Below the pieces are notes generated by a model. It saw only the letters and a list, made by a program, of their open reading frames with translations, made no database searches and had not been told where the DNA came from. From an uncultured Actinomycetes bacterium (GTDB taxonomy: Bacteria > Actinomycetota > Thermoleophilia > Solirubrobacterales > 70-9), in assembly GCA_963702075.1 (NCBI GenBank), contig OY969703.1, positions 2,528,203-2,592,202 on the forward strand: a DNA stretch of 64,000 bases, written 5' to 3'. Below, piece by piece: positions 667 through 18,293 of this stretch. Position numbers and translations under genes: made by a program. The stretch's first letter is position 1. Each line of letters starts with the position of its first letter.

Positions 667-4252
<3,586 letters not shown>

Positions 4253-4263
<11 letters not shown>

Positions 4264-5128
4264 AGCGCTCCGGCATCTCTGCCGGGTGCAGCGCCGGGCG
4301 CTGCCAGTTGCGGCCTTCGTAGGCTTCCTCGAAGCCGGCCCGTTCCAGGTTGTGGACGATGGCCGACCAGGACGCCAGATCGCATTCGCCGACCTCGACG
4401 AAGACGGTGTGGCATCCCGCCCGGTGGGCGTCGAGCAAACGCCGGTGCAGCAAGGCCGCGTTGCAGCCGCGCCCCCGCGCGTGCTCGAGCGTCGTACCAG
4501 CCCCGAGCTGTGCGACCCCGTCCGCAATCAGCATCGAACCGGTCGAGACCGGGATCTCCTCCGGCCCCAGCGCCGCGGTGTAGCAATGCCACCCGTCTTG
4601 CTGCGGCAGCGAGAAGAACAGCGTCCCCGCTACCAGCGGCATATCGAGGGCTTCGGCGGCGATCGTGCTCAGCCCTTCGCCTTCGGCTTCGTCCTCTCCC
4701 AGCCGGTAGATGACGATGCTGGGATCGATGGTGAAGTCTGGCGGCGAGCCGTCACGGACCAGTTTCACCCAGCCCGTTCCCTGCTCGTAGCCGCGCTCGT
4801 CCAGCCAAGCCTCCGCCACCCCCGCGCCGGGCCTGCCGGCGGCAACCGGGATCCGGTAGTCGACTTCGCGGGCTCGCATCCATTCCACCGCTGCCGCCAG
4901 ATGACCATCGGCGACGGCGGTGGGCTCCGCCGCTCCCTGGATCTGCTGCAGCAAGTGGACTTCGGGCAGGTCGCCGAAGGCGGTGGCCTGCACCGGCCCG
5001 AACGTCTCCACTTCAACTCCTGATTCAGAAACTGCTTCCGGAACTACCGAGTCCCACATGTCGCGCCGGAAGCGCTGCGCGACCCTCTCCAATACTGCCG
5101 AGTCGTATCTCACGGCTCCCCTTCCCAA
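4253..5128 (-). CDS. GNAT family N-acetyltransferase (two-lobed)
   Basis: 291 aa. The C-terminal lobe carries a GNAT acetyl-CoA motif (HARGRGCNAALLHRRLLDAHRAGC...ERAGFEE). The 3' end overlaps metH convergently by 11 nt. Confidence 0.6.
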
Positions 5129-5270
5129 GTTCGCGTGAGTGTTTTGGCCGATTGCTCGACTCTATGCACACCACTGTGGATTCGTCAAGGAACCTTGTCG
5201 ATCTGGCTAAGAAGTCATGCGAGCCCGCGCCTGAGACCCTCGAAGGCGGGCCGTGTGCCCTTTATCGAGA

Positions 5271-7598
5271 CTAGGCGACGCCACCGCGTTTGGCGCCGCC
5301 GGAACGGGCGCGCGGGTGCGGTTCGAGCCGCACCGGAGCGGTCTGGACCGCCTGCACTCGCAGATCGCTCCAGGTGAGCCCCTCGCGAACGAGCGCCGGC
5401 AGGCCGAGGCCCACAGCGGTGGCGATCTCGACCGCCTGGAGGATCACGCCATAGGCGAGGGCGTCGGCGGTGCTGATCCCGAAACCGGTGTGCAGAACGC
5501 TGATCACGGCAAGCTGGAAGACGCCGATATTGGAGGGCGTCGCCGGCACCACCGCGGTGACGTTGACCGCGAAGAGGACCGCTGCGGCGGCTCCGATCCC
5601 GGCCTTGCCGTCGAGCCCGAGGGCATAGAGCAGCGCCCAGCAGGCGCAAAGTTGGATCGCCCAGGCACCGAGCTGCGCGGCGGCAGCGGCCGACCCTTGG
5701 CGCGGATCGCGGAAGACGGTGAGCCCGGCGCGAACCTGCACCAGCGCCCGGTGAATCGCCCCACCCAGGCGGGCCAGGCGGCCATTGCCGTTGCGGCGCA
5801 TCAACAGTGGCGCAATCAGGAGCACCAAGAGGATGAGCACCGGCAACAGGCTGAAGGCGAAGATCTGCTTCGTCCCCGAGTGGAAGAGCGGCGTGGTCGA
5901 GACGATGATCACCCCGAGCAGAACCAGCGCGACCAGGTTCAGCATCGTCTGCGATACCAGGGTCCCGAGCAGGACCGGGAACGTTTCCCGCATTCGCCCG
6001 CTTCGTCGGGCCAAGGTCAGCGCTCGCGCAGGCTCACCCAGGCGCGCGGGCAGCGTCGCCGACATCAGCACCCCGATCATCGTCGCTGAGGTGACGTCGC
6101 GGCGGCGGATCGGCCGGTTCGGCAGCGCCGCCCGGGCGATCCAGTACCAGGAGGCTGCACGGAAGAAGAGTGAAGTCGCCATCAGCGCGCAGGCGATCAG
6201 GACCCAGGTTAGGTTCGAGCGGACGATGCTTTCGACGACGTTGTCGATGCCGATCTTCTGCGCGGCTAAGAGCGTGAGGCCTACCCCCAGCAGCCCTGCG
6301 ACCCCCAGCCCAACCCGCCTGGCGACGACGCGGCCCCTGTTGCCGGCCTGAGCAGGCGCAGGGTCGAGCGAGGGCAGCCGCTCCGCCCGTCGCTTCGGAT
6401 TGCCGTCGGCGGGCCGGATCCCCGCCCAATGGGCGAACTTTTCTCCCGCCGTCGCCGGCTTCGGCGCCGCGATCGCGCGCTCGTAGACCGCCGTCACCTG
6501 ATCGGCCACCCGTGGCCAGGCGTACCGCCGGGCGCTGCGACGCGCGGCCGCGCCCATCTCGAGCAGGCGCTCGGGCTCGTGGTGGACCCGCTGCAGCTCT
6601 TCGGCCAGGCGCTGGGGGTCGCCCGGGGGCACCAGCAAGCCGTCGACCCCGTCGCTGACGACGTCGCTGTACCCGGCGATGGCGGAGGCGATGACCGGGG
6701 TGCCGGCCGCGAAGGCCTCGGTCAGGACCATCCCAAAGCTCTCCCCGGACAGCGAGGGGGCGCAGAGGACGTCGGCGCGGTGCAGCTCATCCCAGAGGCT
6801 TGGCCCGGAGACCCGGCCGCGGATGTCCATGAAGCGCAGCAGGTCGGGGTCGGCGACGTAGCGGAGCACATCCTCCCGCTCGGCGCCGATCACGGTGAGC
6901 TTGCATGGCACGTGCTCGACCAGCGCGTTGAAGGCGGTCAGGAGAATCGGCAGACCCTTGCGCTCCTCCGGCCGGCCGACGAAGAGGATCCGCAGTTCCT
7001 CGGAAGGCGCGACCGGGTCGGTCGGCGCGGCTTCGACGTCGACCCCGTTGGGGATGATCGTGTACTCGCCGCCGAACCAGCGGCGGCCCGTCCAGGCTGC
7101 GGCCTCTGAGACGGCGATCCGGGCCGAGAGGCGGTTGAAAAGCCGACGGGCGCCGACGGCGGTGGCGATGTAGTTCGGCAGCGGCTTGGTCGCATAAGCG
7201 TGAAAGGTGCCGACGACCGGGTCGTGGGCGGCAAGGGTCGCGTTCCAGCCGACCAGCGGCACCAGCGGCTCATGGACGTGAATGACGTCGAAATCGCCGG
7301 CGCGGACGGCGCGACGTGGCGCGACCACGCCGCCGGCCGGGAAAGGTGCCAGGTTGGAGACCGATCCGTTGGCCCCGAACCCGGCCGTGCGACCGAGCGG
7401 GATCAGGTATTCGGGCAGCTCGCGGCGTTCGGCCTGCGCCCGGTGAAGGACGCGGCTGACCCGCCCAGGCGGGTCGACGGGAGCGAGGACGCGGACATCG
7501 TGGCCACGCCCGAGGAACTCCTCGGCCAAAGCCTCAACGTGCCGGTTCACGCCCCCCTGGTAAGACCAGGAATATGGCGAGACGAGACCTATGCGCAC
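5271..7598 (-). CDS. fusion protein: GT4 glycosyltransferase (N-terminal) plus flippase-like / lysyl-PG-synthase-type transmembrane domain (C-terminal)
   Basis: 775 aa. The N-terminus MRIGLVSPYSWSYQGGVNRHVEALAEEF...ESFGMVLTEAFAAGTPVIAS is PimA-like GT4. Residues from about 430 to 775 form about 8 predicted TM helices resembling the UPF0104 flippase-like domain. Confidence 0.75.
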   Translation of the reverse strand: MRIGLVSPYSWSYQGGVNRHVEALAEEFLGRGHDVRVLAPVDPPGRVSRVLHRAQAERRELPEYLIPLGRTAGFGANGSVSNLAPFPAGGVVAPRRAVRAGDFDVIHVHEPLVPLVGWNATLAAHDPVVGTFHAYATKPLPNYIATAVGARRLFNRLSARIAVSEAAAWTGRRWFGGEYTIIPNGVDVEAAPTDPVAPSEELRILFVGRPEERKGLPILLTAFNALVEHVPCKLTVIGAEREDVLRYVADPDLLRFMDIRGRVSGPSLWDELHRADVLCAPSLSGESFGMVLTEAFAAGTPVIASAIAGYSDVVSDGVDGLLVPPGDPQRLAEELQRVHHEPERLLEMGAAARRSARRYAWPRVADQVTAVYERAIAAPKPATAGEKFAHWAGIRPADGNPKRRAERLPSLDPAPAQAGNRGRVVARRVGLGVAGLLGVGLTLLAAQKIGIDNVVESIVRSNLTWVLIACALMATSLFFRAASWYWIARAALPNRPIRRRDVTSATMIGVLMSATLPARLGEPARALTLARRSGRMRETFPVLLGTLVSQTMLNLVALVLLGVIIVSTTPLFHSGTKQIFAFSLLPVLILLVLLIAPLLMRRNGNGRLARLGGAIHRALVQVRAGLTVFRDPRQGSAAAAAQLGAWAIQLCACWALLYALGLDGKAGIGAAAAVLFAVNVTAVVPATPSNIGVFQLAVISVLHTGFGISTADALAYGVILQAVEIATAVGLGLPALVREGLTWSDLRVQAVQTAPVRLEPHPRARSGGAKRGGVA

Positions 7599-7643
7599 GG
7601 GCGATCAAGAGTAGATCATCGGTCGGCAGGCGCCGACGAGCAG

Positions 7644-7853
7644 TCAGCGCCAGGCCAGCGCCAGAACGGTGCCGATCAGGCCGAGGATGCCGACCCCGAC
7701 CGTGCCGGCGAGGCCCCAGCCAATCTGGATGAGAACCCGCTTCAGGGCTGCCACCTCGCCCCGAAGTTCCCGGACGTCGTCACGGATCTCGGTGACGCGT
7801 CCGTTCAGATCGTCGAGACGGGAATCCGTCCAAGTGGACCTCATTGCCTCCAT
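7644..7853 (-). CDS. small coiled-coil protein with C-terminal TM helix (paralog of 12118-12330)
   Basis: 69 aa. GGAGG lies 3 nt upstream of the ATG. It has an N-terminal STWTDSRLDDLNGRV motif and a C-terminal hydrophobic helix. It sits between two co-oriented envelope genes. Confidence 0.55.
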   Translation of the reverse strand: MEAMRSTWTDSRLDDLNGRVTEIRDDVRELRGEVAALKRVLIQIGWGLAGTVGVGILGLIGTVLALAWR

Positions 7854-7877
7854 GCCTCCAGCCTAGGGAGCAAAAGC

Positions 7878-9653
7878 TCAAATTTGGGTCACAGAAGTGT
7901 AACTTTTCGTCTGTGACGATGTTTTCTCGCTCTTTGCACTGCTTTCTGCCCAGGCGAAGCCGGTGAAGACGAGCAGGTAGGCGGCGCCGATCTCGAGCAG
8001 GAGGGCGCCTGAATCGTTGGCGAGGGTGCCGATCGCGGTGGCGGCCAGCGCGCCCAGGAGTCCCGCTCGCATCGCCGGGCGTCCCTCCAGCCAGGCGCTC
8101 AAACGCTCCCGCCGCAGGTAGGCGAGCGCCCCGAGCACGAAGACCACGGGCAGGAACGCCAGCAGGACGGGTCGGACAAAGCTGTGGGCGGAGAGCTGAA
8201 GGCGCCGCTGGGCGACGTCGGCGAGGTCGCTGAGACCGCCGGCGTCGAGCACAGAGCGGGTCAAGTGGGCGTTGGCGCCGCTGAGCAGGTCGATCAGCGC
8301 GAGCAGCGCGAGCACGGCAAACGGCGCGGCGATCACGGCCAGGGCCGCGGTGCGCCGGCCGCGGCCGGCGACCGTGACGGCCGCAACCACGGCCCCGACC
8401 GGGAAGACGATCGCGGCGCCGACGTCGGCTCCGAACCGACCGGCGGCGAAGACGAAGGCGGCGAGCAGACCCACCCCCACGAAGGCAACCACTCGAGCGC
8501 GCTCGGATGCGCTTCGCGCGAACCCGGTTAAAGCGGCGCCGGTGCCGGCGACCACGAGCACCGCCAGCAGGGCCTCGAGCTCGTTGCCGATTCCGTAGAA
8601 GCGCACCCCCAGTCCCGGATTTGGCCCCAGCAGCGAGAGCGAGGTGAGCGACGACCCGGCGATCGCGTCGACGGCGTAGGCGGACACCGTCAGCGCCGAA
8701 GCGATCGCGAGCGCTCGGTAGCCAGGCAAGGCCCAGAGCGTTAGCGCCGCCAGCAGCGGCGATAGGAGCAGCACCAGCAGCTGTTCGGCGCTCTCCCCCG
8801 GTTCAAGCGCCGCTCCGAGCAGGAGGACGAGCGGCAGGTAGACGATCGCGAGCGCGACGACCTTCACCGCCGCCCGGGCCCGCCGCCCGCGGCTGAGAAC
8901 CGCCGCCAGCAGCAGGGCAACCAGCCAGATGACGGCGCTCAGCCCGATCACCGGCCCGCGCCGCGAGGAGATCACGTCCATGCGGTCGACCAGCGATCCG
9001 ATCGCCGCCGGGTCAACAGATCCCTCCGAACGGATCGGCTGCCCCGACATCTCGCTTGGCACCGGAATTCCGAAGTGCCGCAGGATCGTCGGCGCTACGT
9101 CAGTTGAAAGCACGTACCCATCCGTGCGCGTGCTATCCGAGGTGAGGTTGCCGTGGAAGCCCCCGCCGGCGATGCCGATTGAAACCGGTTCATCCGACTT
9201 ACCCGTAGGCCAGGCGATCGCGATCAGGAGCGCATCGCTTCTTGGCGGGGGCAGCCGGTCGAGGGAGGTCCGGGCGATTTCCGAGAACTGGGAGCGGACG
9301 TTGTTTTCTCTCAGCGTTCTCTTCAGGAGATCGGGCACGATGTCGGCGGGCGCGGATTCGGCCCGTTCCACCACTTCCAGGAACCAGCCCGCTCCACTTC
9401 TGTGCTCCGGCAGTGGCCGGTCGTAGAGGGAGTCGAAGACCCGGTTTCCCTGGCCGACGTCGAGGTACGTCTGCAATGGCGGAACCGTCCCGAGTCCGGC
9501 GCTCATCACCCCCGGCGAGAGACCGGCGTCCGCCAGCTGCTCGACCGTCGTATCGCTCGGCAGCCAGGCCAAGATCGCCCTCTGCGGTTGGGCGGCGGCG
9601 GGCGCCGGGGCCACCATTAGTCCCGTAAGAAGCAGCGCTATCGTGGCTCCCAT
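7878..9653 (-). CDS. membrane protein: exported alkaline-phosphatase-superfamily-like domain plus polytopic membrane domain
   Basis: A signal/TM segment MGATIALLLTGLMVAPAPAAA is followed by the motif STDVAPTILRHFGIPVPSEMSGQPI, typical of sulfatase / LTA-synthase-type domains. About 10 TM helices follow. The ORF could start at 9740, but 9653 avoids a long overlap with hemQ. Confidence 0.55.
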   Translation of the reverse strand: MGATIALLLTGLMVAPAPAAAQPQRAILAWLPSDTTVEQLADAGLSPGVMSAGLGTVPPLQTYLDVGQGNRVFDSLYDRPLPEHRSGAGWFLEVVERAESAPADIVPDLLKRTLRENNVRSQFSEIARTSLDRLPPPRSDALLIAIAWPTGKSDEPVSIGIAGGGFHGNLTSDSTRTDGYVLSTDVAPTILRHFGIPVPSEMSGQPIRSEGSVDPAAIGSLVDRMDVISSRRGPVIGLSAVIWLVALLLAAVLSRGRRARAAVKVVALAIVYLPLVLLLGAALEPGESAEQLLVLLLSPLLAALTLWALPGYRALAIASALTVSAYAVDAIAGSSLTSLSLLGPNPGLGVRFYGIGNELEALLAVLVVAGTGAALTGFARSASERARVVAFVGVGLLAAFVFAAGRFGADVGAAIVFPVGAVVAAVTVAGRGRRTAALAVIAAPFAVLALLALIDLLSGANAHLTRSVLDAGGLSDLADVAQRRLQLSAHSFVRPVLLAFLPVVFVLGALAYLRRERLSAWLEGRPAMRAGLLGALAATAIGTLANDSGALLLEIGAAYLLVFTGFAWAESSAKSEKTSSQTKSYTSVTQI

Positions 9654-10359
9654 GGCCGATCGCACCTTTGCCAAGTTCAGCTTCTTCAAGATCGATCCCG
9701 CCTGGCGCCGTCGCGACGCCGAGCTCCGCGCGGCCGACAAGCGAGAGTTCCTCGCCGCCTGCGAGGACTTTGCCGTCGACCGCTCGCTGCGCGCCTACTC
9801 AACCATAGGCACGCGCGGCGACGTCGACCTGGTGCTGCTGACGCAGAGCCCGAACCTGAGCGACATCCACACCTTCCACGTCGTCCTCGGCCAGAGCGGC
9901 CTGGCGAAATGGACCACCACCCCCCACTCGTTCCTCTCGATGACCAAACGCTCGCCCTACTCGGCCGAGGACGCCCGTCCGGAGATCTGCACCAGCGAGC
10001 GCAAGTACCTCTTCCTCTACCCGATGGTCAAGCAGCGGCGCTGGTACGGGCTGCCGCCGGAGGAGCGCGGCCGGATCATGAAAAGCCACATCGAGGTCGG
10101 CCGCCGCCACCCGGAGATCACGATCAACACGACCTACTCATACGGGATCGACGACCAGGAGTTCGTCGTCTGCTTCGAGGGCGACGATCCAGGCGAGTTC
10201 CTCGACCTCGTCAACGAGCTGCGGCCAACCGAGTCGAGCGAGTACACCGAGCGGGAGACGCCGATCTTCACCTGCGTGGCGATGTCGGTCGCGAAGGCGC
10301 TCGACGCCCTCGACGGGACCCCCAGCGCGGTCGGCGCCGGTGCCCCGGCGCTCGGCTGA
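9643..10359 (+). CDS. hemQ: chlorite dismutase family protein / coproheme decarboxylase
   Basis: 238 aa, with FAKFSFFKIDPAWRR...LFLYPMVKQRRWYGLPPEERGRIMKSHIEVGRRH typical of actinobacterial HemQ (ChdC). Confidence 0.8.
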   Translation: MAPMADRTFAKFSFFKIDPAWRRRDAELRAADKREFLAACEDFAVDRSLRAYSTIGTRGDVDLVLLTQSPNLSDIHTFHVVLGQSGLAKWTTTPHSFLSMTKRSPYSAEDARPEICTSERKYLFLYPMVKQRRWYGLPPEERGRIMKSHIEVGRRHPEITINTTYSYGIDDQEFVVCFEGDDPGEFLDLVNELRPTESSEYTERETPIFTCVAMSVAKALDALDGTPSAVGAGAPALG

Positions 10360-10390
10360 CGATCGTCTTTCCCTATTCTTTCGCGCTCCA

Positions 10391-11797
10391 ATGAGCAAGA
10401 TCGGAACCGAAGAGACCCCCCTGCGCGTCGCCATCGTCGGCGCCGGCCCCAGCGGCTTTTACGCCGCCGAGCACATCCTCAAAGACGGCGACCTGCACGC
10501 CCAGGTCGACCTCTTCGACCGCCTCCCCAGCCCGTTCGGCCTGGTCCGCGGCGGCGTCGCCCCGGACCACCCGAAGATCAAGTCGGTAATTCGGGTCTAC
10601 GAAAAAACCGCGGCCCGCGACGGCTTCCGCTTCTTCGGCAACGTCAAGATCGGCCACGACGTCGAGGTCGAAGAGCTGGAGCGGCTCTACCACGCCATCG
10701 TCTTCACGGTCGGCTGTGAGACCGACAGGCAACTGGGGATCCCGGGCGAGGACCTACCCGGCAGCCACGCCGCCACCGCCTTCGTCGGCTGGTACAACGC
10801 CCACCCCGATTACGCCGACCGTGAGTTCGACCTCTCCAGCGAGCGCGCGGTCGTGATCGGCAACGGCAACGTGGCGATGGACGTGGCCCGGATGCTGGCC
10901 CTGACCGACCACGAGCTGCGCCAGACCGACACCGCCGACCATGCGATCGAGGTCCTAGATCGCAAGCAGATCCGCGAGATCGTCGTCCTCGGCCGCCGCG
11001 GCCCGGTCCAAGCCGCCTTCACCAACCCCGAGATCAAAGAGCTCGGGGAGATGGAGGACGCCGACGTCGTCGTCGACCCGCAGGAGGTCGAGCTCGACCC
11101 GGCCAGCCGGGCCTTCCTCGAGTCCGACGAGGTCGACAAGACGACCCGGGTCAACGTCGAAACGCTGAAGGAGTTTTCCGAGCGTGAGCCCGAGGGGAAG
11201 AAGCAGCGGATCGTCCTCCGTTTCCTCTCCTCCCCGGTCGAGATCAAGGGCGACGGCAAGGTCGAATCGATCGTGGTCGGCCGCAACGAGCTGGTCGAGG
11301 ATGGCGGGGCGCTGCGTGCCAAGGACACCGGCGAGCGCGAAGAGCTCGAGTGCGGGCTGGTCCTGCGGTCGGTCGGCTACACCGGCATCCCGATCGAGGG
11401 CGTTCCCTTCGATGAGAGCCGGGGCCTGATCCTCAACGAGGGTGGCCGCATCCTCGACTCCCACGACGCCGGCCACAAGGTCGGCCATTACACCGCCGGC
11501 TGGATCAAGCGCGGGCCCTCAGGCGTGATCGGGACCAACAAGAAAGACGCGCTCGAGACCGTCCAGCACCTACTCCAGGACGTCGAGGCGGAGAAGCTGC
11601 TGAGCCCGGAGAAGCCGGACCCGGTCGCCGTCGAGGACCTGCTGCGCGAGCGCAACATTCGCTACGTCAGCTTCGAGGACTGGCAGGCGATCGACCAGGC
11701 CGAGGTCGGCCGCGGCGAGCCGCACGGCCGCCCGCGGGTCAAGTTCGTCCGGGTCGAGGAGATGCTCGAGACCCTCGGCGAGCCCGCCGCGAGCTAG
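10391..11797 (+). CDS. fprA: NADPH-ferredoxin reductase, FprA / adrenodoxin-reductase type
   Basis: RVAIVGAGPSGFYAAEHIL...FDRLPSPFGLVRGGVAPDHPKIKSV matches the FprA family. The start was moved to the ATG at 10391 (MSKIGTEE); the upstream extension overlaps hemQ. Confidence 0.85.
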   Translation: MSKIGTEETPLRVAIVGAGPSGFYAAEHILKDGDLHAQVDLFDRLPSPFGLVRGGVAPDHPKIKSVIRVYEKTAARDGFRFFGNVKIGHDVEVEELERLYHAIVFTVGCETDRQLGIPGEDLPGSHAATAFVGWYNAHPDYADREFDLSSERAVVIGNGNVAMDVARMLALTDHELRQTDTADHAIEVLDRKQIREIVVLGRRGPVQAAFTNPEIKELGEMEDADVVVDPQEVELDPASRAFLESDEVDKTTRVNVETLKEFSEREPEGKKQRIVLRFLSSPVEIKGDGKVESIVVGRNELVEDGGALRAKDTGEREELECGLVLRSVGYTGIPIEGVPFDESRGLILNEGGRILDSHDAGHKVGHYTAGWIKRGPSGVIGTNKKDALETVQHLLQDVEAEKLLSPEKPDPVAVEDLLRERNIRYVSFEDWQAIDQAEVGRGEPHGRPRVKFVRVEEMLETLGEPAAS

Positions 11798-12775: not shown

Positions 12776-13153
12776 CTAAACCGCTGCTGCTGATTCCGCT
12801 GCGTCCTCTTTGACTTGGAAAGAGGAGCCGCAGCCGCAGGCCGCAACCACGTTCGGATTGTTGACCTGGAAGCCGGCGCCCTGCAGGCCTTCGACGTAGT
12901 CGACCTCCGAGCCGAAGACGAACTGCATGCTCACCTTGTCGACGACAACGGCGACGCCGTCGACCTCGAAGAGGTTGTCGTCCTCCTTGGCCTTGTCGAA
13001 GGCGAGTGCGTACTGGAAGCCGGAGCAGCCACCGCCGCGGACGGCAACCCGCAGCGCCTGCTCACCCGCGTCGGCTTGAGAGCCCAGCAGCTCGCCGATC
13101 TTCTCGACGGCCTTGTCACTGAGGGTGATCGCGGCTTGGGGCGTATCGGTCAC
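12776..13153 (-). CDS. erpA: iron-sulfur cluster insertion protein (HesB/IscA/ErpA family)
   Basis: ITLSDKAVEKIGELL...LRVAVRGGGCSGFQYALAFD...CGCGSSF is the A-type carrier signature. The start is set to the GTG at 13153; the upstream part of the 207-aa ORF has no coding character. Confidence 0.85.
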   Translation of the reverse strand: MTDTPQAAITLSDKAVEKIGELLGSQADAGEQALRVAVRGGGCSGFQYALAFDKAKEDDNLFEVDGVAVVVDKVSMQFVFGSEVDYVEGLQGAGFQVNNPNVVAACGCGSSFQVKEDAAESAAAV

Positions 13154-13173
13154 TTCACAAAGTGTAGCGTCAA

Positions 13174-13181
13174 ACGTCGGC
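13174..13181. repeat. target-site duplication, left copy (ACGTCGGC)
   Basis: An identical 8-mer directly abuts the outer end of both terminal inverted repeats (13174-13181 and 17376-17383). Confidence 0.8.
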
Positions 13182-13204
13182 GGTAGTGGGTCAGTTTGAA
13201 TCTG
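13182..13204. repeat. left terminal inverted repeat GGTAGTGGGTCAGTTTGAATCTG
   Basis: Exact reverse complement of 17353-17375, checked base by base. The match stops on both sides. Confidence 0.9.
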
Positions 13205-13315
13205 CCCCCCGCAAGCCGCCTCCACCGCTATAGGTTCCGCCGCGTCCAAGCGAAATAACGGCGGGGGCGCTGGTGGAACAGCCCCCCGCCTGGCACCGAA
13301 AGGCGGAACCTTCCG

Positions 13316-13585
13316 ATGCAGGCAGAGCGTACGGCAGCGCCGTTTGATGAAGACGACATATATGAGCAGGCGGTCCTCAGGCACGTCCTGATCGCGCAAC
13401 CGACGGTCTTGCGGTTGTGCGATCTCACCCGCGAAGTCCGGCCCGAACTGGGCGACTCAGACCCCGTGGACGCCGTTGAAAGAGCGGTGCGGGAACTGGT
13501 CAAGGTCGGCCTGCTCTACCGGGACGGCAAGTGCGTCCTGCCGACCCCGGCAGCGGTCTACGTCGGCGGAATGGACCTCGGATGA
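13316..13585 (+). CDS. hypothetical small winged-helix-like protein (transposon cargo)
   Basis: 89 aa. Its stop overlaps the next start (ATGA). The C-terminal pattern AVERAVRELVKVGLLYRDGKCVLPTPAA parallels the ORF at 13807. Confidence 0.45.
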   Translation: MQAERTAAPFDEDDIYEQAVLRHVLIAQPTVLRLCDLTREVRPELGDSDPVDAVERAVRELVKVGLLYRDGKCVLPTPAAVYVGGMDLG

Positions 13586-13803
13586 GCTGCGATGAGGTCG
13601 GCAAGCAGATCGGGCGCAACATCGCCGAGGCTCGCAGGCAGGCGGGGCTTTCGCAATATCGACTCGGCCTTCGTCTATTCATGCACCCGAACGAGATATC
13701 CCGGCTGGAGCGCGGGGTTGGCTGCCCTCGGCTCACCACGCTCATGCCAATCGCCCGGGATCTGAAGGTGCCGCTGACCGATCTCCTGCGGGGGATCGAG
13801 TAG
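13582..13803 (+). CDS. XRE-family helix-turn-helix transcriptional regulator
   Basis: MSCDEVGKQIGRNIAEARRQAGLSQYRLGLRL...ISRLERG...LTTLMPIARDLKVPLTDLL is a classic Cro/C1-type HTH. Confidence 0.8.
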   Translation: MSCDEVGKQIGRNIAEARRQAGLSQYRLGLRLFMHPNEISRLERGVGCPRLTTLMPIARDLKVPLTDLLRGIE

Positions 13804-13806
13804 GCG

Positions 13807-14052
13807 GTGCCCCCGAGCCGCAAGCACTGGCCGGCGCATCGCATCCCCCTCCAGAGGCCGGTGATGGCGCTGGCCCTGGAGGCTTACCCCCACTGGCGCA
13901 CGATCCCCGAGCTGGCCCGAGAGATCGGTGCCAGCGGGGCGCTGACGCGGTCGGTGATAGAGCTGATCCAGCTCGGGCTGCTGGAAAATCACGGCTCGGC
14001 TGTGCGGCCCACCAAGGCCATCGCCCACATGGAGCGCCTGAGCCTGCCCTAG
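13807..14052 (+). CDS. hypothetical small winged-helix-like protein (paralog-like to 13316 ORF)
   Basis: 81 aa from a GTG start; the start could instead be the internal M at 13864. TIPELAREIGASGALTRSVIELIQLGLLENHGSAVRPTKA resembles the MarR/ArsR-type recognition helix plus wing. Confidence 0.4.
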   Translation: MPPSRKHWPAHRIPLQRPVMALALEAYPHWRTIPELAREIGASGALTRSVIELIQLGLLENHGSAVRPTKAIAHMERLSLP

Positions 14053-14062
14053 GCTTTGAGCT

Positions 14063-14287
14063 ATGGCCAAGCGGAGCAAGAAGCCTGCTGACCTCAACCG
14101 CCTCGCCGCCGCCATCGTCGGCGAGGCGACCGACGAGACGGCCCAGAAAACGGAAAGCCAGCAGGCTCGGGCCGGACGCCTTGGCGGAAGGAAAGGCGGC
14201 AAGGCGCGAGCCGGTCAAATGACGCCGGAGGCACGTTCACAGGCCGCCCGCAAGGCAGCGCGAGCACGGTGGCAGCGAAGCGACTAG
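14063..14287 (+). CDS. small basic protein of unknown function (GGRKGGKARA...ARKAARARW motif)
   Basis: 74 aa, highly basic and low complexity. Its end overlaps the ATPase gene convergently by 4 nt. Confidence 0.35.
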   Translation: MAKRSKKPADLNRLAAAIVGEATDETAQKTESQQARAGRLGGRKGGKARAGQMTPEARSQAARKAARARWQRSD

Positions 14288-15531
14288 TCCGTGTACAGCC
14301 CGGATCTAATCCCCTCTAAGCGGACATAGGGGATCAGCTGGGGATTGATGAACTGCCACCGGTAGTTCCGCCTTACGCCGCTCTTCTTAAGTACAGGCCC
14401 TCTCTGCTTTTCCGTGAACTTGGCGAGGTGGCTCTGAAAGGCGTCAGTCGTGTAGTCGCGGCCCGTCATCTTGCTCAGTGGCTCGCGTAGCTGAACGGCG
14501 GAAAAGCGCCCTAGGAAATCCTTCTCGGCCAATGCGCAGGCAAGCAGCACATAGCGAAACAGCGTGCCTTTCCGGACCGACGCCACCGCTTTCGCGTATT
14601 CCTGCTCTACGGCTCCTGATGCATGCTGGAGGGCTGCTACGACGGCCGCATCTAGATGGCTCAAGCTAACCGTGCTATTCCCGCTGTCAATCGTGCTGCG
14701 GCCAGCCCAGAGCCCGAGAAGATGGGTGTAATGCGGGTATCCCTGGGAGAGTTCAGCAATCCGGGTGTCGACCCCTCGCTCATAGCTCAATCCGGCAAAG
14801 CGAAATCCCTTCTGGACGATCTCCGCTAGCTCCTCAACAGGCATAGGCGAGACCTGAACCGGCGCAATGTTCCGCGCGACAGACTCATGCCCCGCCATCA
14901 GGTCGGCCAGGGAATCGGCGACCCCGACGACCATGATCGTCGCGTCGGTGTCGGTGTCGGCGAACAGCTTAATCGTGTCCGCCATCAACTTGTGAGTCGT
15001 ACCTCCATTCACGGCAACGCGATCAAACTCATCGATGATGATGACCGGCGGGTTTGGCAACGACCGAACGTAGAGTCGAACGTCGTTCGGATGCTCGATC
15101 TCGGCATCGGGCATCTCAAGTCGCCCTACGACAGATGCAGCGACATCCTGAACAAACCCGATTTGGCGCTGCGTCACCTGGATCTCCTGGAAAACCTTCT
15201 TCCAGATGGACGAGAAATTGTCCTCGGAACTGCAAGAGACGAAGATTGAGCGCCTCCCCTGCGGCGCTTCAGGCTCCTGCACCTGGAAGGCGATCACACG
15301 AGCCAGCGAAGTCTTTCCAGTGCCACGGTCGCCGAAGAGGACAACGTGCTGCCCCTCCGTGTTGACGGCGTCGGTTGCCTGGTCTAGAAAGCGCAAGCGA
15401 CCAGCAAGGAACTCCGGGAGATGCACCGGCTTGTATGGAGTGAAAGCGTGGTTTAGCGCGTCGCGCGAAGGTGGCGCAGGAAGTTCAGGGGGCGCCGCTT
15501 TGCGGGTATCTCGGGGGTCGAGCATCTCCAT
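14284..15531 (-). CDS. AAA+ ATPase, Orc1/Cdc6-like (ATPase core plus C-terminal winged-helix-like region)
   Basis: 415 aa. Walker A is VVLFGDRGTGKTSLA and Walker B is PPVIIIDEFDRV. A sensor-like GVADS region is followed by a helical C-terminal domain. Confidence 0.7.
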   Translation of the reverse strand: MEMLDPRDTRKAAPPELPAPPSRDALNHAFTPYKPVHLPEFLAGRLRFLDQATDAVNTEGQHVVLFGDRGTGKTSLARVIAFQVQEPEAPQGRRSIFVSCSSEDNFSSIWKKVFQEIQVTQRQIGFVQDVAASVVGRLEMPDAEIEHPNDVRLYVRSLPNPPVIIIDEFDRVAVNGGTTHKLMADTIKLFADTDTDATIMVVGVADSLADLMAGHESVARNIAPVQVSPMPVEELAEIVQKGFRFAGLSYERGVDTRIAELSQGYPHYTHLLGLWAGRSTIDSGNSTVSLSHLDAAVVAALQHASGAVEQEYAKAVASVRKGTLFRYVLLACALAEKDFLGRFSAVQLREPLSKMTGRDYTTDAFQSHLAKFTEKQRGPVLKKSGVRRNYRWQFINPQLIPYVRLEGIRSGLYTD

Positions 15532-15627
15532 GAAAGAGCAATATAGAGGCTAGAACGAGCAGTAAAGCCCAGATTTTGGGCGCTGCCGCGCAATTGCCGA
15601 GCTTTTCCATCCGCTCGCTCAAGCAAA

Positions 15628-16473
15628 ATGGTCAGTATGAACAGGCTGAGCACGGAGAAGCGAGCGCAGATCATCGGCTGCCTCGTAGAGGGCAACAGCA
15701 TCCGCGCCACCGTGCGGATGACCGGCGCGGCCAAGAACACGATCGTCAAGCTGCTGGCGGATCTCGGCGAAGCCTGCGCCGATTACCAGGATGGCGTGTT
15801 CCAGCAGCTCCCCTGCAAGGTGGTAGAGGCCGATGAGATCTGGGCCTACTGCTACGCGAAGCAGAAGAACGTGCCCGAGCAGTTCAAGGGGACGCCGGGA
15901 TACGGGGACGTGTGGACCTTCACCGCCGTCTGCGCCGACACGAAGCTCGTCCCCTCCTGGCTGGTCGGCGAGCGCACCATGTACGACGCGACCTACTTCC
16001 TCGAAGACCTGGCGGGCCGGATGGCCGGGCGCATCCAGCTATCTACGGACGGGCACTCGATGTACGAATCGTCGGTGCGGCAGGCGTTCGGGGTCAACGT
16101 CGACTGGGCAGTGATCCAGAAGAACTACGCCGCCGACCCGAACCAGGGCGGCAAATACAGCCCGCCTGTCTGCACCGGGACCAAGCGGCGACCGATGAAG
16201 GGCGACCCTGATCCTGCGCGGATCTCCACCAGCTACGTGGAGCGCCAGAACCTGACGATGCGGATGGGCATGCGGCGCTTCACGCGGCTCACCAATGGCT
16301 TCAGCCGCAAAGTCGAGAACCTTGCTCACGCGGTCTCTCTGCACTTCATGCACTACAACTTCGCTCGCCCGCATCGGTCCCTGAAAGAGCGCTACCCGCG
16401 GACCCCGGCGATGGCTGCCGGCATTGCCGATCACATCTGGTCGCTGGAAGAAATCGCAGCGCTGCTGGACTAG
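15628..16473 (+). CDS. IS1 family transposase (single-ORF type)
   Basis: 281 aa. The N-terminal HTH is LSTEKRAQIIGCLVEGNSIRATVRMTGAAKNTIVKLL. The DDE core is EADEIWAYCYAKQKN ... STDGHSMY ... YVERQNLTMRMGMRRFTRLTNGFSRKVENL...HFMHYNF, which parallels IS1 InsB. Confidence 0.8.
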   Translation: MVSMNRLSTEKRAQIIGCLVEGNSIRATVRMTGAAKNTIVKLLADLGEACADYQDGVFQQLPCKVVEADEIWAYCYAKQKNVPEQFKGTPGYGDVWTFTAVCADTKLVPSWLVGERTMYDATYFLEDLAGRMAGRIQLSTDGHSMYESSVRQAFGVNVDWAVIQKNYAADPNQGGKYSPPVCTGTKRRPMKGDPDPARISTSYVERQNLTMRMGMRRFTRLTNGFSRKVENLAHAVSLHFMHYNFARPHRSLKERYPRTPAMAAGIADHIWSLEEIAALLD

Positions 16474-16540
16474 AATGCACAATTGCCTTTGACCACTCAC
16501 CTTGACTTCTATCTCCGCCTGCCGATAAGGTCCTCAAAGG

Positions 16541-16738
16541 ATGGCGGTGGAAATCGGCGCAACCGGTGGCTTTGGCGAGAGCGTGTCCCTTTCCGGGGAG
16601 GACGCTGCGCGCTTCGTAAATGAGGTCGCTCATCCGTCTACCGACGAGCGGCGCCTGTCGCATCTAGAGCGCTCGGACAGGGCTTACGAGCACCTGTTTT
16701 CTCCCGAGCCAATCAGCGAACTCCCTCCCTCGAAGTAG
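16541..16738 (+). CDS. putative antitoxin fragment (resembles only the toxin-binding C-terminal part of DUF1778/TacA antitoxins)
   Basis: 65 aa lying 3 nt upstream of the GNAT ORF. The segment SLSGEDAARFVNEVAHPSTDERRLSHLERS resembles the C-terminal region of TacA-type antitoxins. No N-terminal RHH is recognisable. Confidence 0.35.
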   Translation: MAVEIGATGGFGESVSLSGEDAARFVNEVAHPSTDERRLSHLERSDRAYEHLFSPEPISELPPSK

Positions 16739-16741
16739 TCC

Positions 16742-17350
16742 TTGGCAGCTCAGTTACGGCGCCTAGCGCTCCCCGTTGACGAGCAACTTTCCCGAGTAGT
16801 AGGGGAGTTCGACTGTCTGGGAGATGGCCACCAAGACGACTTGGTGGCCAAGAACGTCAATGGCTTCCTCTGCGACGGTCGCTGCGAGCAGGGGCTAAAG
16901 CACGGAATCAGCTCCACCTATCTCCTGCTCGATCCTGAGAAGGACCCCGCCTTGATCGGCTACGCCACCTTGACCTTCGACTCGGTACGACTGACGAACT
17001 CGGAGAAGAAGAAGATGGAGGAGCTAATTGGTATCGCCCAGTTCGGGGCGATCCGCATCCAGATGATCGGCGTCGATCATCGCCACCAGCGCACCCGCTG
17101 CGGCTCAATCCTCTTGGAGGCCATCACCGGGCTCGCCCGGAAACTCTCCCAGGACATCGCGGTGCGCTTCCTCTTGGCAGATGCCAACGTCAAGCGGATC
17201 GGGTTCTACGAATCAGCCGGCTTTGTCAGGAACCAGGCACAGCGCGAGGCTGAAAGAACGGATACCGAGCGGAGCGTTTCGATGCGCCTCGATCTGATCG
17301 ATCCGCCCAACGCGGACAGTCTCGACGGCGTGACATCAGTCGCCGCCTAG
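16742..17350 (+). CDS. GNAT-fold acetyltransferase, TacT/AtaT-like toxin candidate
   Basis: 202 aa from a TTG start. The layout FDC...FL...SSTYLLLD...LIGYATLTFDSVRL...IQMIGVDHRHQRTRCGSILLEA...RFLLADANVKRIGFYESAGF matches GNAT toxins. The stop lies 3 nt before the right TIR. Confidence 0.5.
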   Translation: MAAQLRRLALPVDEQLSRVVGEFDCLGDGHQDDLVAKNVNGFLCDGRCEQGLKHGISSTYLLLDPEKDPALIGYATLTFDSVRLTNSEKKKMEELIGIAQFGAIRIQMIGVDHRHQRTRCGSILLEAITGLARKLSQDIAVRFLLADANVKRIGFYESAGFVRNQAQREAERTDTERSVSMRLDLIDPPNADSLDGVTSVAA

Positions 17351-17352
17351 GT

Positions 17353-17375
17353 CAGATTCAAACTGACCCACTACC
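17353..17375. repeat. right terminal inverted repeat CAGATTCAAACTGACCCACTACC
   Basis: Exact reverse complement of 13182-13204. Confidence 0.9.
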
Positions 17376-17383
17376 ACGTCGGC
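17376..17383. repeat. target-site duplication, right copy (ACGTCGGC)
   Basis: Identical to 13174-13181 and abuts the right TIR. Confidence 0.8.
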
Positions 17384-17417
17384 GGCCCAATGCGACAGCA
17401 CGTCTAGAATCGCCTTT

Positions 17418-18293
17418 GTGAGCTCGCTCGCCGAGACCGCGGTCGTCTGCGACACGACCGGCTACCTGCCGACCGAGCTTGTGGCCGAGCGGGGGATCAA
17501 GACGATCAGCCTCTATGTCTCGGTCGACGGCCAGCAAGAACGGGAGTCGGAGATCGGCGACTTCGATGACTTCTACGAGCGCTTGCGGGCTTCCGAAAGC
17601 AGCGCGACGACTTCGCAGCCTTCGATCGGCGACTTCCTCGAGGTCTACGAGCCGCTGCTGGCCGAAGGGCGCGAAATCGTCTCGATCCACATCTCCGCCG
17701 GCATCTCCGGCACCTTCGAGGCGGCCGGGCAGGCGCGCGAGCGGTTGATCGAGGAAGACAAGGGGGGCGAGCGCCTGCACCTGATGGATTCGCGCTCGGC
17801 CGCCGGCGGCATGGGTCTATGCACCCTCGGCGCCGCCTCGGCCGCGGCCACCGGCGCCGACGCGGCCGCCTGCCTCGCCAATGCCGAAGAGACCCGAAAC
17901 AACCTGAAGATGTGGTTCGCGATCGACACCCTCGAGTACCTGCGTCGCGGCGGTCGCATCGGTGGCGCCCGCGCCTGGATCGGCGGGGCGCTGAAGATCA
18001 AGCCGATCCTCACTCTCGAGGAGGAGATCACCCCGGTCGAGCGGGTCCGCACCCGCGCCCGCTCGCTGGAGCGGCTGCGGGGCTACGCGCGCCAACGCCA
18101 GGAATCCGGTGCATACGGCTGGGTCGTCCAGTACATCCAAGACAAAGAGACCGCCGACGCCCTGGTCGAAGACTGCTACGAGATCTTCGGCTGTGAGCCG
18201 GCCTTCATCTCCGAGGTCGGTCCCGTGCTCGGCGCCCACGTCGGCCCCGGCCTACTCGGCGTTGGGTCAGTGCGTACCGACCTGATTGCCTGA
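17418..18293 (+). CDS. DegV family fatty-acid-binding protein
   Basis: 291 aa. VVCDTTGYLPTELVAERGIKTISLYV...TTSQPSIGDF...HISAGISGTF is the DegV signature. Confidence 0.85.
   Translation: MSSLAETAVVCDTTGYLPTELVAERGIKTISLYVSVDGQQERESEIGDFDDFYERLRASESSATTSQPSIGDFLEVYEPLLAEGREIVSIHISAGISGTFEAAGQARERLIEEDKGGERLHLMDSRSAAGGMGLCTLGAASAAATGADAAACLANAEETRNNLKMWFAIDTLEYLRRGGRIGGARAWIGGALKIKPILTLEEEITPVERVRTRARSLERLRGYARQRQESGAYGWVVQYIQDKETADALVEDCYEIFGCEPAFISEVGPVLGAHVGPGLLGVGSVRTDLIA

Follow-up and report, generated by a model that had tools for sequence, protein, structure and literature searches.

Insertion by classical IS1-type elements is considered almost random. This report concerns one relative of these insertion sequences (ISs), which lies at a fixed distance from a promoter-like motif. 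The locus is in a stretch of 64,000 nucleotides, referred to here as the window, from contig OY969703.1 of an uncultured Solirubrobacterales bacterium. There, a 4.2-kb element separates a leftward erpA/iscA-type gene (12776-13153) from a rightward degV gene (17418-18293). We think it probable that this is a cargo-carrying transporter IS (tIS), from a widespread and distant branch of the IS1 family, and that its lineage homes to a motif in the promoters of genes for thiol and sulfur metabolism. The original prediction, made from the sequence of the window, had described a cargo-carrying IS1 relative. Position-exact homing is a feature added to that interpretation.

The limits of the element are set by two terminal inverted repeats (TIRs), flanked by a target-site duplication:

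13174..13181, no strand: left copy of the duplication, ACGTCGGC; single copy at empty sites L082 and L112
13182..13204, plus strand: left TIR, perfect over 23 bp, with the family-conserved core GGYAGTGGGTCAGTTTG; the core is also found in a Mesorhizobium loti plasmid and more than 120 viral contigs
17353..17375, minus strand: right TIR, exact reverse complement of the left TIR
17376..17383, no strand: right copy of the duplication, ACGTCGGC, adjoining the right TIR

Allowing up to three mismatches, the 23-bp repeat GGTAGTGGGTCAGTTTGAATCTG matched the window at these two positions only (0.00 matches expected from shuffles). A repeat finder lengthened the pair to 26 nt with one mismatch. The outer tips are 4,194 bp apart, and G+C content is 58-66% in the element compared to 65-70% in the flanks. 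Note that the right-hand ACGTCGGC is followed by GG, which would allow a direct repeat of as much as 10 bp, running into the TIR. Since 58 relatives show unambiguous 8-bp duplications, we take the length to be 8 bp. The gap between the ErpA and DegV genes in the window is 4,264 bp (17418-13153-1). Subtracting the element and one 8-mer leaves 62 bp. The original prediction had proposed that an empty site be sought in related strains. We scanned metagenomes with the DegV protein, and 80 contigs were returned. In most contigs holding both genes the ErpA-DegV gap is about 62 bp. The empty site in L082 reads GTAGCGTCAgACGTCGGCGGgCCaAaG, with one copy of ACGTCGGC in the same context as the window. 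Similarly, L112 is empty and has ACGTCGGC once, and L116 shows the site of the L096 insertion in its exact empty state. Because empty sites in relatives have a 62-bp gap and carry the 8-mer once, the repeat is a true target-site duplication. Hence, the predicted 23-bp perfect TIRs, bracketing 4,194 bp, and the predicted 8-bp duplication both stand. Intact ends, together with empty sites in relatives, also point to recent insertion of the window copy, in agreement with the earlier proposal.

We conclude that members of this Solirubrobacterales lineage target a host motif at an exact offset. In the window, the relevant features are:

13152..13168, minus strand: host target motif GCTACACTTTGTGAAGT, consisting of a -10-like TACACT and a palindrome ACTT-N4-AAGT; overlaps the erpA start codon
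13169..13173, no strand: 5-nt spacer between the motif and the duplicated 8-mer; all 26 occupied sites have a motif-to-TIR distance of 13 nt (8+5)

With up to three mismatches allowed, the motif occurs once in the window, at the element (0.05 occurrences expected by chance), and ACTTNNNNAAGT is likewise found only there. The motif is present at empty ErpA-DegV sites. To survey the family, we used a genome scan that returned 80 loci, nearly all from Solirubrobacterales or Thermoleophilia metagenome-assembled genomes (MAGs). The transposase is bracketed by inverted GGYAGTGGGTCAGTTTG in about 60 of the 80. Perfect 8-bp duplications, all different in sequence, flank 58 TIR pairs, and L001, over a size range of 1.9-8 kb. 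A general rule emerged from the 58 reconstructed target sites: on one side there is the duplication, then 5 nt, then GCTAYACTTTNTGAAGT. With two mismatches permitted, 41 motif hits are found in 1.45 Mb. A TIR end lies exactly 13 nt from 26 of these, and no other distance was seen. Counting all loci, there are 100 exact motifs, 34 of them occupied. Viewed from the elements, offset 5 has GCTAYACTTTNTGAAGT exactly in 27 of 59 cases, and with up to six mismatches in 37 of 59, compared to approximately zero at the other offsets between 0 and 30. Orientation is unbiased, with about 14 right-end and 12 left-end junctions. The ErpA-DegV spacer is occupied in ten genome loci and at least ten metagenome loci. 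The TIR begins exactly 13 nt after AAGTGTAGC, as counted at 11 or more ErpA-DegV sites, the duplications vary from copy to copy, and both orientations occur. Degenerate sites at offset 5 retain parts of the motif, either GCTAY... (L030 and the inner element of L007) or ...TGAAG (class-2 sites). The inner L007 element is 5 nt from the partial motif GCTACAC. Our literature search found no report of site-specific IS1-family elements.

Could an ordinary IS, with no target preference, produce the same pattern? The shared site would then reflect selection, with few permissive intergenic positions, or one ancient insertion that was inherited. Genome size is in its favour: complete MAG chromosomes are compact, at 2.5-3 Mb, and insertions elsewhere may be purged. 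Many of the occupied sites are orthologous ErpA-DegV spacers. However, the exact 13-nt spacing recurs at no fewer than four non-orthologous promoters (erpA, trxA, moeZ, and cysM), with no other offset. Furthermore, the perfect 8-bp duplication of each copy corresponds to the variable sequence of its own site, insertions face both ways, and sister genomes are empty. Logically, selection cannot set an offset to the single nucleotide. We therefore consider this explanation highly improbable.

The ErpA-DegV spacer also gathers remnants. Short or decayed derivatives (0.7-2.5 kb) occupy the same position in L095, L099, L111, L119, and L158, and some of them have a TIR that is degenerate or lacks 1 nt. 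Unrelated insertions are present in the spacer of L101, L107, and L114.

How might such homing work? Our model is that the transposase, a DDE enzyme encoded by a single open reading frame (ORF), recognises the conserved ends GGYAGTGGGTCAGTTTG, cuts the target with an 8-bp stagger, and links the element to it. Insertion in the Solirubrobacterales lineage is directed to GCTAYACTTTNTGAAGT. Whichever way the element faces, its tip comes to lie 13 nt upstream of the motif, and the window copy entered the 62-bp erpA-degV spacer in this manner. We infer that the motif is read by an element-encoded protein, either the transposase N-terminus or the product of orf74, a small gene common to the family, and not by a host factor. 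Elements of a sister lineage (L043 10873, L044 (-) 16743, L060 10861, L067 (-) 13859, and L069 11150) have CTCGATAATNNATGTTATGTAAA directly after the 8-bp duplication. These sites lie in different gene contexts, within the same host order, and represent a second homing specificity. Three further elements (L070 152-4833, L072 7623-11846, and L078 7493-11442) are lodged in GC-rich hairpin loops (cccc-duplication-gggg) and hint at a third type of target. A helix-turn-helix (HTH) module carried by other members of the family is missing from L033, which targets the motif, and from the sister lineage. Since the sister lineage uses another motif, and both it and L033 are without the HTH module, the transposase or orf74 is indicated as the selector.

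Our tentative proposal is that this IS1 branch has protein-encoded target recognition that can be switched between lineages. The transposase N-terminal domain or orf74 would read a motif of approximately 17 bp, and the cut would be made exactly 5 bp away. Lineages would differ in the motif recognised, be it the thiol-regulon promoter, CTCGATAATNNATGTTATGTAAA, or hairpin loops. If true, this would be a compact two-gene system for sequence-directed DDE transposition, shuttling defence genes to 'safe' promoter-proximal sites. Alternatively, targeting could rely on a host factor. Here, the transposase or orf74 would dock on a regulator bound at ACTT-N4-AAGT, or on RNA polymerase and its sigma factor at the -10 element, and insertion would follow at a fixed distance. 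A scheme of this kind has been proposed for TnGBS/ISLre2 at sigma-A promoters. The combination of a -10 element and a palindrome, typical of a dimeric regulator's site and common to a functional regulon, fits this scheme. So does the spacing, since the centres of the duplication and the palindrome are about 20 bp, or two helical turns, apart. Fixed-distance promoter targeting by DDE transposases is also documented in another family (PMC3942029). Conversely, degenerate sites with a partial motif, at the same offset, fit tolerant direct readout, and the sister lineage uses an unrelated motif and a different offset in the same host order. On balance, we regard docking on a host factor as rather doubtful.

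A third scheme would have the target chosen by an element-encoded RNA guide, as in IS110/IS1111, with the structured left leader as the guide. RNA-guided IS targeting exists in other families (PMC11187229), and the left non-coding leader does contain a strongly covarying hairpin:

13260..13290, plus strand: GC-rich hairpin in the left leader, with a 12-bp stem; RNAalifold, 17 elements: 8 pairs with compensatory double changes

However, among 27 motif-targeting elements no stretch matches or complements the 17-nt target beyond shuffles (5.78 compared to 5.86 mismatches). Moreover, the hairpin loop varies among elements with the same target, and the enzyme is of the DDE rather than the DEDD type. 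With no internal match or complement to the target above chance level, an RNA guide is very unlikely. Two other ideas were discarded. An internal operator identical to the target was rejected, there being no match beyond shuffled controls. A 'pseudo-end' model, where the TIR interior CAGTTTGAA resembles the target CACTTTGTGAA, fails at TATACTTTTTGAAGT sites. The leader hairpin may control translation or guard against read-through transcription. It has no U-tract, and a search of positions 13000-17600 against Rfam gave no match. The leader (13205-13315) also has a second, weaker helix, formed with the sequence around the first ORF's start codon.

What, then, is the motif in the host? The genes on either side of the element are:

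12776..13153, minus strand: erpA/iscA-type Fe-S carrier, 125 aa, GTG start; NCBIfam NF010147 ErpA 120.8 bits, with a cut-off of 117
17418..18293, plus strand: DegV-family gene; NCBIfam TIGR00762 260 bits

ErpA orthologues flank related elements in 10 genome loci. In total, the motif heads four gene families: erpA/iscA (NF010147), thioredoxin (TIGR01068), rhodanese-MoeB/MoeZ adenylyltransferase (NF006444), and cysteine synthase (cysKM). Besides the window site, GCTAYACTTTNTGAAGT is found at promoters in L001, L003, L005, L014, L024, L025, and others. The general form of the motif is a -10-like TAYACT with the palindrome ACTT-N4-AAGT. It would thus be the promoter/operator of an undescribed thiol/sulfur regulon in Solirubrobacterales. 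Because the motif overlaps the GTG start codon, the erpA transcript is suggested to be leaderless. With the element tip 15 bp upstream of the -10 hexamer, an occupied promoter has its -35 region replaced. Inspection of the TIR sequence revealed no -35-like hexamer at 16-18 bp. Presumably, the site is tolerated since the promoter works without a -35 region. On the other side of the element, a -10-like TAGAAT (17403-17408) remains attached to degV, and the conserved GTCTAGAATCG is present in empty sites.

Assignment of the element to a family depends largely on its transposase:

15628..16473, plus strand: transposase, single-ORF DDE type, 281 aa; best matched as a distant IS1-family member, D69/D141/E205

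IS1 was the top match in two libraries. Pfam PF03400 (DDE_Tnp_IS1) scored 27.6 bits, where the gathering score is 24.1, at residues 198-241. For NCBIfam NF033558 (IS1), E=6e-13 at residues 7-152, a wide margin over the next best model, IS1595 (E=1e-3). In a BLASTP alignment with Escherichia coli InsB (E=2e-6, 24% identity), EADEIW, STDG, and VERQN pair with EMDEQW, MTDG, and IERHN respectively, giving the triad D69, D141, and E205. The three residues are invariant in 61 family members of 53-94% identity. Relative to InsB, there is a 33-residue insertion ahead of the catalytic E. More than 8,000 database proteins match the transposase, and the closest (up to 94% identity) are Solirubrobacterales proteins named 'IS1 family transposase'. 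In ISfinder, the IS1 family is described by ends GGnnnTG and an 8-9-bp duplication. The tip reads GGTAGTG at both ends of the element, and GGYAGTG in about 60 relatives, which fits. Hence, the IS1-like ends and duplication hold as predicted, and the single-ORF IS1-type DDE transposase does so at a distance.

An alternative is that the element lies outside the IS1 family, in a separate IS1595-like or new family sharing the DDE fold and short end motifs. This could account for the weak scores against IS1 models, the low identity to InsB, and the 33-residue insertion, which falls between the second D and the E. It could also explain why a zinc finger and frameshift are lacking, and why there is a universal extra gene, orf74, unknown in classical IS1. 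We consider the alternative unlikely since IS1 outranks IS1595 so widely, the Pfam match exceeds its gathering score, and the blocks DEIW, TDG, and ERQN align with InsB. In addition, the ends and the 8-bp duplication are those of IS1, and both NCBI and JGI name the homologues 'IS1 family transposase'.

A number of observations count against our overall reading of the element. The Pfam IS1 match spans only 44 C-terminal residues, the NCBIfam score of 49 bits is far under the cut-off of 100, and the InsB query was entered by hand. The insA/insB frameshift is absent, the transposase being one uninterrupted 281-aa ORF. No zinc finger is evident either: paired CxxC motifs are missing from the N-terminus, and HTH_23 matches it only weakly. 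These last two absences exclude the classical IS1 subgroup but not the family, where single-ORF subgroups exist. Regarding the motif reader, the AlphaFold model of the transposase, built from a shallow alignment, had a predicted local distance difference test score (pLDDT) of 40 and was unusable. The model of orf74 has three helices and a moderate pLDDT of 74, and a Foldseek comparison with the PDB gave no structural match. For the motif itself, the case for a promoter/operator is made by position and gene content, and a simple sigma-70 consensus scan found no promoter. The latter is because the scan requires a -35 element and no -35 consensus is present. Many of the ErpA-site insertions are from related species, and their independence is read from distinct duplications and two orientations, not from phylogeny. 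Finally, we found no second copy or near-identical relative of the window element, and current activity is unproven.

Which genes belong to the element itself, and which are cargo? Inside the element there are 8 ORFs, one being the transposase. Four small and closely packed plus-strand genes occupy the left end. The features are:

13231..13236, plus strand: conserved -10-like TAGGTT, from which the left-end operon of small genes may be transcribed; in an alignment of 17 left ends, T, A, and the closing TT do not vary
13316..13585, plus strand: orf89, small protein of the left-end module, orf81 paralogue; found by tblastn in 20 loci, in the same places as orf81; no Pfam match
13582..13803, plus strand: XRE-type HTH protein, 73 aa, its ATG overlapping the orf89 stop as ATGA; Pfam HTH_3 E=1.7e-10; homologues in left modules of 35 loci
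13807..14052, plus strand: orf81, small conserved protein of the left-end module; found by tblastn in 33 genome loci, up to 88% identity; no Pfam match
14063..14287, plus strand: orf74, 74-aa basic protein, universal accessory gene; 59 of 59 complete elements
14284..15531, minus strand: cargo 1, P-loop ATPase of AAA_22/nSTAND1 type, 415 aa; Pfam AAA_22 6e-11, nSTAND1 2e-9
16541..16738, plus strand: cargo 2a, orf65, small ORF 3 nt upstream of the GNAT gene, possible antitoxin; kept together with the GNAT gene in L138 and L139
16742..17350, plus strand: cargo 2b, GNAT acetyltransferase, 202 aa, possible toxin; Pfam Acetyltransf_1 25.5 bits, with a cut-off of 20.7; ends 2 nt before the right TIR

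We separated core from cargo by clustering ORFs across 59 complete elements. The transposase and orf74 are each in all 59, small genes of the HTH/orf81 type are in 43, and the cargo ATPase is in 3. The original prediction had counted seven passenger genes. Of these, the ATPase, orf65, and GNAT genes are indeed variable cargo. The other four are not passengers: orf74 is universal, and the XRE-type HTH gene, orf81, and orf89 form a recurrent module. Given the counts for orf74 and the module, and the 35 loci with HTH homologues, these four genes are integral, conserved parts of the element. In annotations, neither orf74 nor the HTH module should therefore be treated as a passenger. What was predicted more broadly, a cargo-carrying element in a GC-rich actinobacterial genome, agrees with the host, a member of Solirubrobacterales (Actinomycetota). 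We infer that TAGGTT acts as the promoter of the left-end operon. There are 1,465 homologues of orf74, all unnamed and without Pfam domains.

For the cargo ATPase we found no nucleotide-level relatives. PADLOC returned only weak generic P-loop and HTH matches, which left the ATPase without assignment to any defence system. The pair of orf65 and GNAT genes is found here and in just two metagenome contigs (L138 and L139), with 76% nucleotide identity, and its position is downstream of the transposase in every case. No Pfam or NCBIfam family matches orf65. AtaT entries are among the PDB matches of the GNAT protein, at non-significant E values of 0.5-0.9. From its arrangement, the pair may be a toxin-antitoxin system. 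Two explanations for its acquisition were rejected. A decayed inner right TIR (16487-16503), as the source of GNAT capture, had a score of 7, equal to the 95th percentile of random segments, and other elements have no such fossil. A separately bounded GNAT module in L138 was also dismissed, its two right ends being those of nested elements.

Across the family, the cargo is rich in predicted defence and conflict genes. Pfam was applied to 76 cargo ORFs, yielding SDH-type proteases (11), M78 peptidases (10), HTH_3 proteins (8), DNA methylases (5), STAND/AAA ATPases (4), Fic (3), Mrr (3), AbiEii-like ATPases (2), and GmrSD (1). Pairs of M78 and HTH genes, and nested foreign ISs, are also present. 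ARAGORN predicts tRNA-like genes inside two relatives, L093 (3557-3630, minus strand) and L023 (1767-1852, plus strand). One has an odd anticodon and the other, just upstream of the transposase, is called as tRNA-Pyl(CTA). These predictions may be false positives or tRNA cargo.

The group extends well beyond Solirubrobacterales. In the Mesorhizobium loti plasmid p_1 (L161, CP050295.1), positions 3796-7165 contain a 3.4-kb relative with an identical TIR core and two cargo genes. The duplication there is 8 bp long (CGCTGGTG), the orf74 homologue is annotated 'histone H1', and the transposase has just 53% identity. Going by its sequence, this copy shows spread of the group across phyla. The TIR core also occurs in more than 120 IMG/VR contigs (L162-L281), of 34-66% G+C, which include full elements with both transposase and orf74. 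Others are derivatives of 153-1142 bp, resembling miniature inverted-repeat transposable elements, with perfect 8-bp duplications (for example, L163 373-662, L241 852-1004, and L167 4334-4949). Phages or prophages may be vehicles for the group. Judged from these contigs and genomes, the IS group is large and mobile. Nested or tandem copies are seen in L007, where an element at 3799-11480 encloses another at 7938-11312, and in L138 (618-2263). In L017 (7696-13179), the two ends adjoin different motif sites, at the cysteine-synthase and moeZ promoters, with no matching duplication. These mismatched flanks indicate recombination or inversion between copies at neighbouring motif sites.

These elements are of interest for several reasons. 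The homing lineage offers a simple DDE system, with one transposase and one tiny accessory protein, for asking what encodes the choice of target and how this shifts from one lineage to another. The sites of the elements mark a putative, uncharacterised promoter/operator common to erpA, trxA, moeZ, and cysteine-synthase genes in Solirubrobacterales. Small IS-like elements bring cargo linked to defence and conflict (STAND ATPases, Mrr, GmrSD, methylases, Fic, and toxin-antitoxin pairs) into the promoters of core thiol genes, and the insertions could affect expression of thiol metabolism.

How does the element compare with known systems? With IS1 of E. coli, and the IS1 family, it shares the DE.W, TDG, and ER.N blocks, GGnnnTG ends, an 8-9-bp duplication, and inverted repeats of about 23 bp. 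It differs in having a single ORF, without the insA/insB frameshift or zinc finger, a universal 74-aa accessory gene, an HTH module, and a length of 2-8 kb with cargo. Furthermore, insertion by one lineage is sequence-directed and position-exact. To our knowledge, IS1 is known only for a regional preference for AT-rich targets. Among transporter ISs, the ISMhu11 subgroup of IS1 reaches about 4.6 kb with passenger genes. The size range is alike, and the resemblance seen is one of length and cargo. We know of no site specificity described for the ISMhu11 subgroup or the '+' groups of IS1595. Such groups have passenger genes inside their inverted repeats, as here, but part of the apparent cargo in our element is a conserved accessory module. 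A transporter IS is defined as an IS-type element with passenger genes inside the inverted repeats (PMC9330008). In our case, the ATPase, and orf65 with the GNAT gene, lie inside the TIRs and vary between relatives.

Tn7 homes to attTn7, using TnsD, and, like other att-site transposons, similarly inserts at a fixed distance from a conserved recognised sequence, near housekeeping genes, with few sites per genome. However, Tn7 makes a 5-bp duplication, compared to 8 bp here, and inserts downstream of the gene. Our elements insert upstream of the gene and inside a promoter, in both orientations, and have no TnsABC-type proteins. None of the eight ORFs matches a Tn7-like TnsA, TnsB, or TnsC, or a dedicated target selector. 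TniB matched with E=0.005, only on the P-loop of the cargo ATPase, and that protein is absent from most relatives. Like IS110/IS1111, these are small ISs with a strict target choice that differs between lineages. IS110/IS1111 elements differ in having a DEDD recombinase, an RNA guide, and no duplication, whereas no guide-like complementarity is found here. Within the cargo, orf65 and the GNAT gene can be compared with TacAT/AtaRT-like GNAT systems, where the toxin is preceded by a small DUF1778/RHH antitoxin. Here, the small orf65 is 3 nt upstream and matches no family.

In behaviour, there is a likeness to TnGBS and related ISs, which insert 15-17 bp upstream of the -35 element of sigma-A promoters (PMC3942029). 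TnGBS, ISLre2, ISKra4, and our elements are all DDE transposons found at a fixed distance from a promoter element, and ISKra4-group elements with near-perfect inverted repeats use both orientations, as here. However, TnGBS, ISLre2, and ISKra4 have a Mutator-like transposase, from an unrelated family, and target generic sigma-A promoters upstream of the -35 element, outside the promoter. Our lineage targets a specific 17-nt motif of one regulon, and its point of insertion, 15 bp from the -10 element, falls in the interval separating the -35 and -10 positions. Pfam and NCBIfam matches of its transposase are to IS1 rather than Mutator/IS256-type (p-MULT) enzymes. Hence, the likeness is in behaviour only. 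Transporter ISs with cargo, and promoter targeting in other families, were already known. What is added here is nucleotide-exact homing by an IS1-type lineage, and its universal accessory protein.

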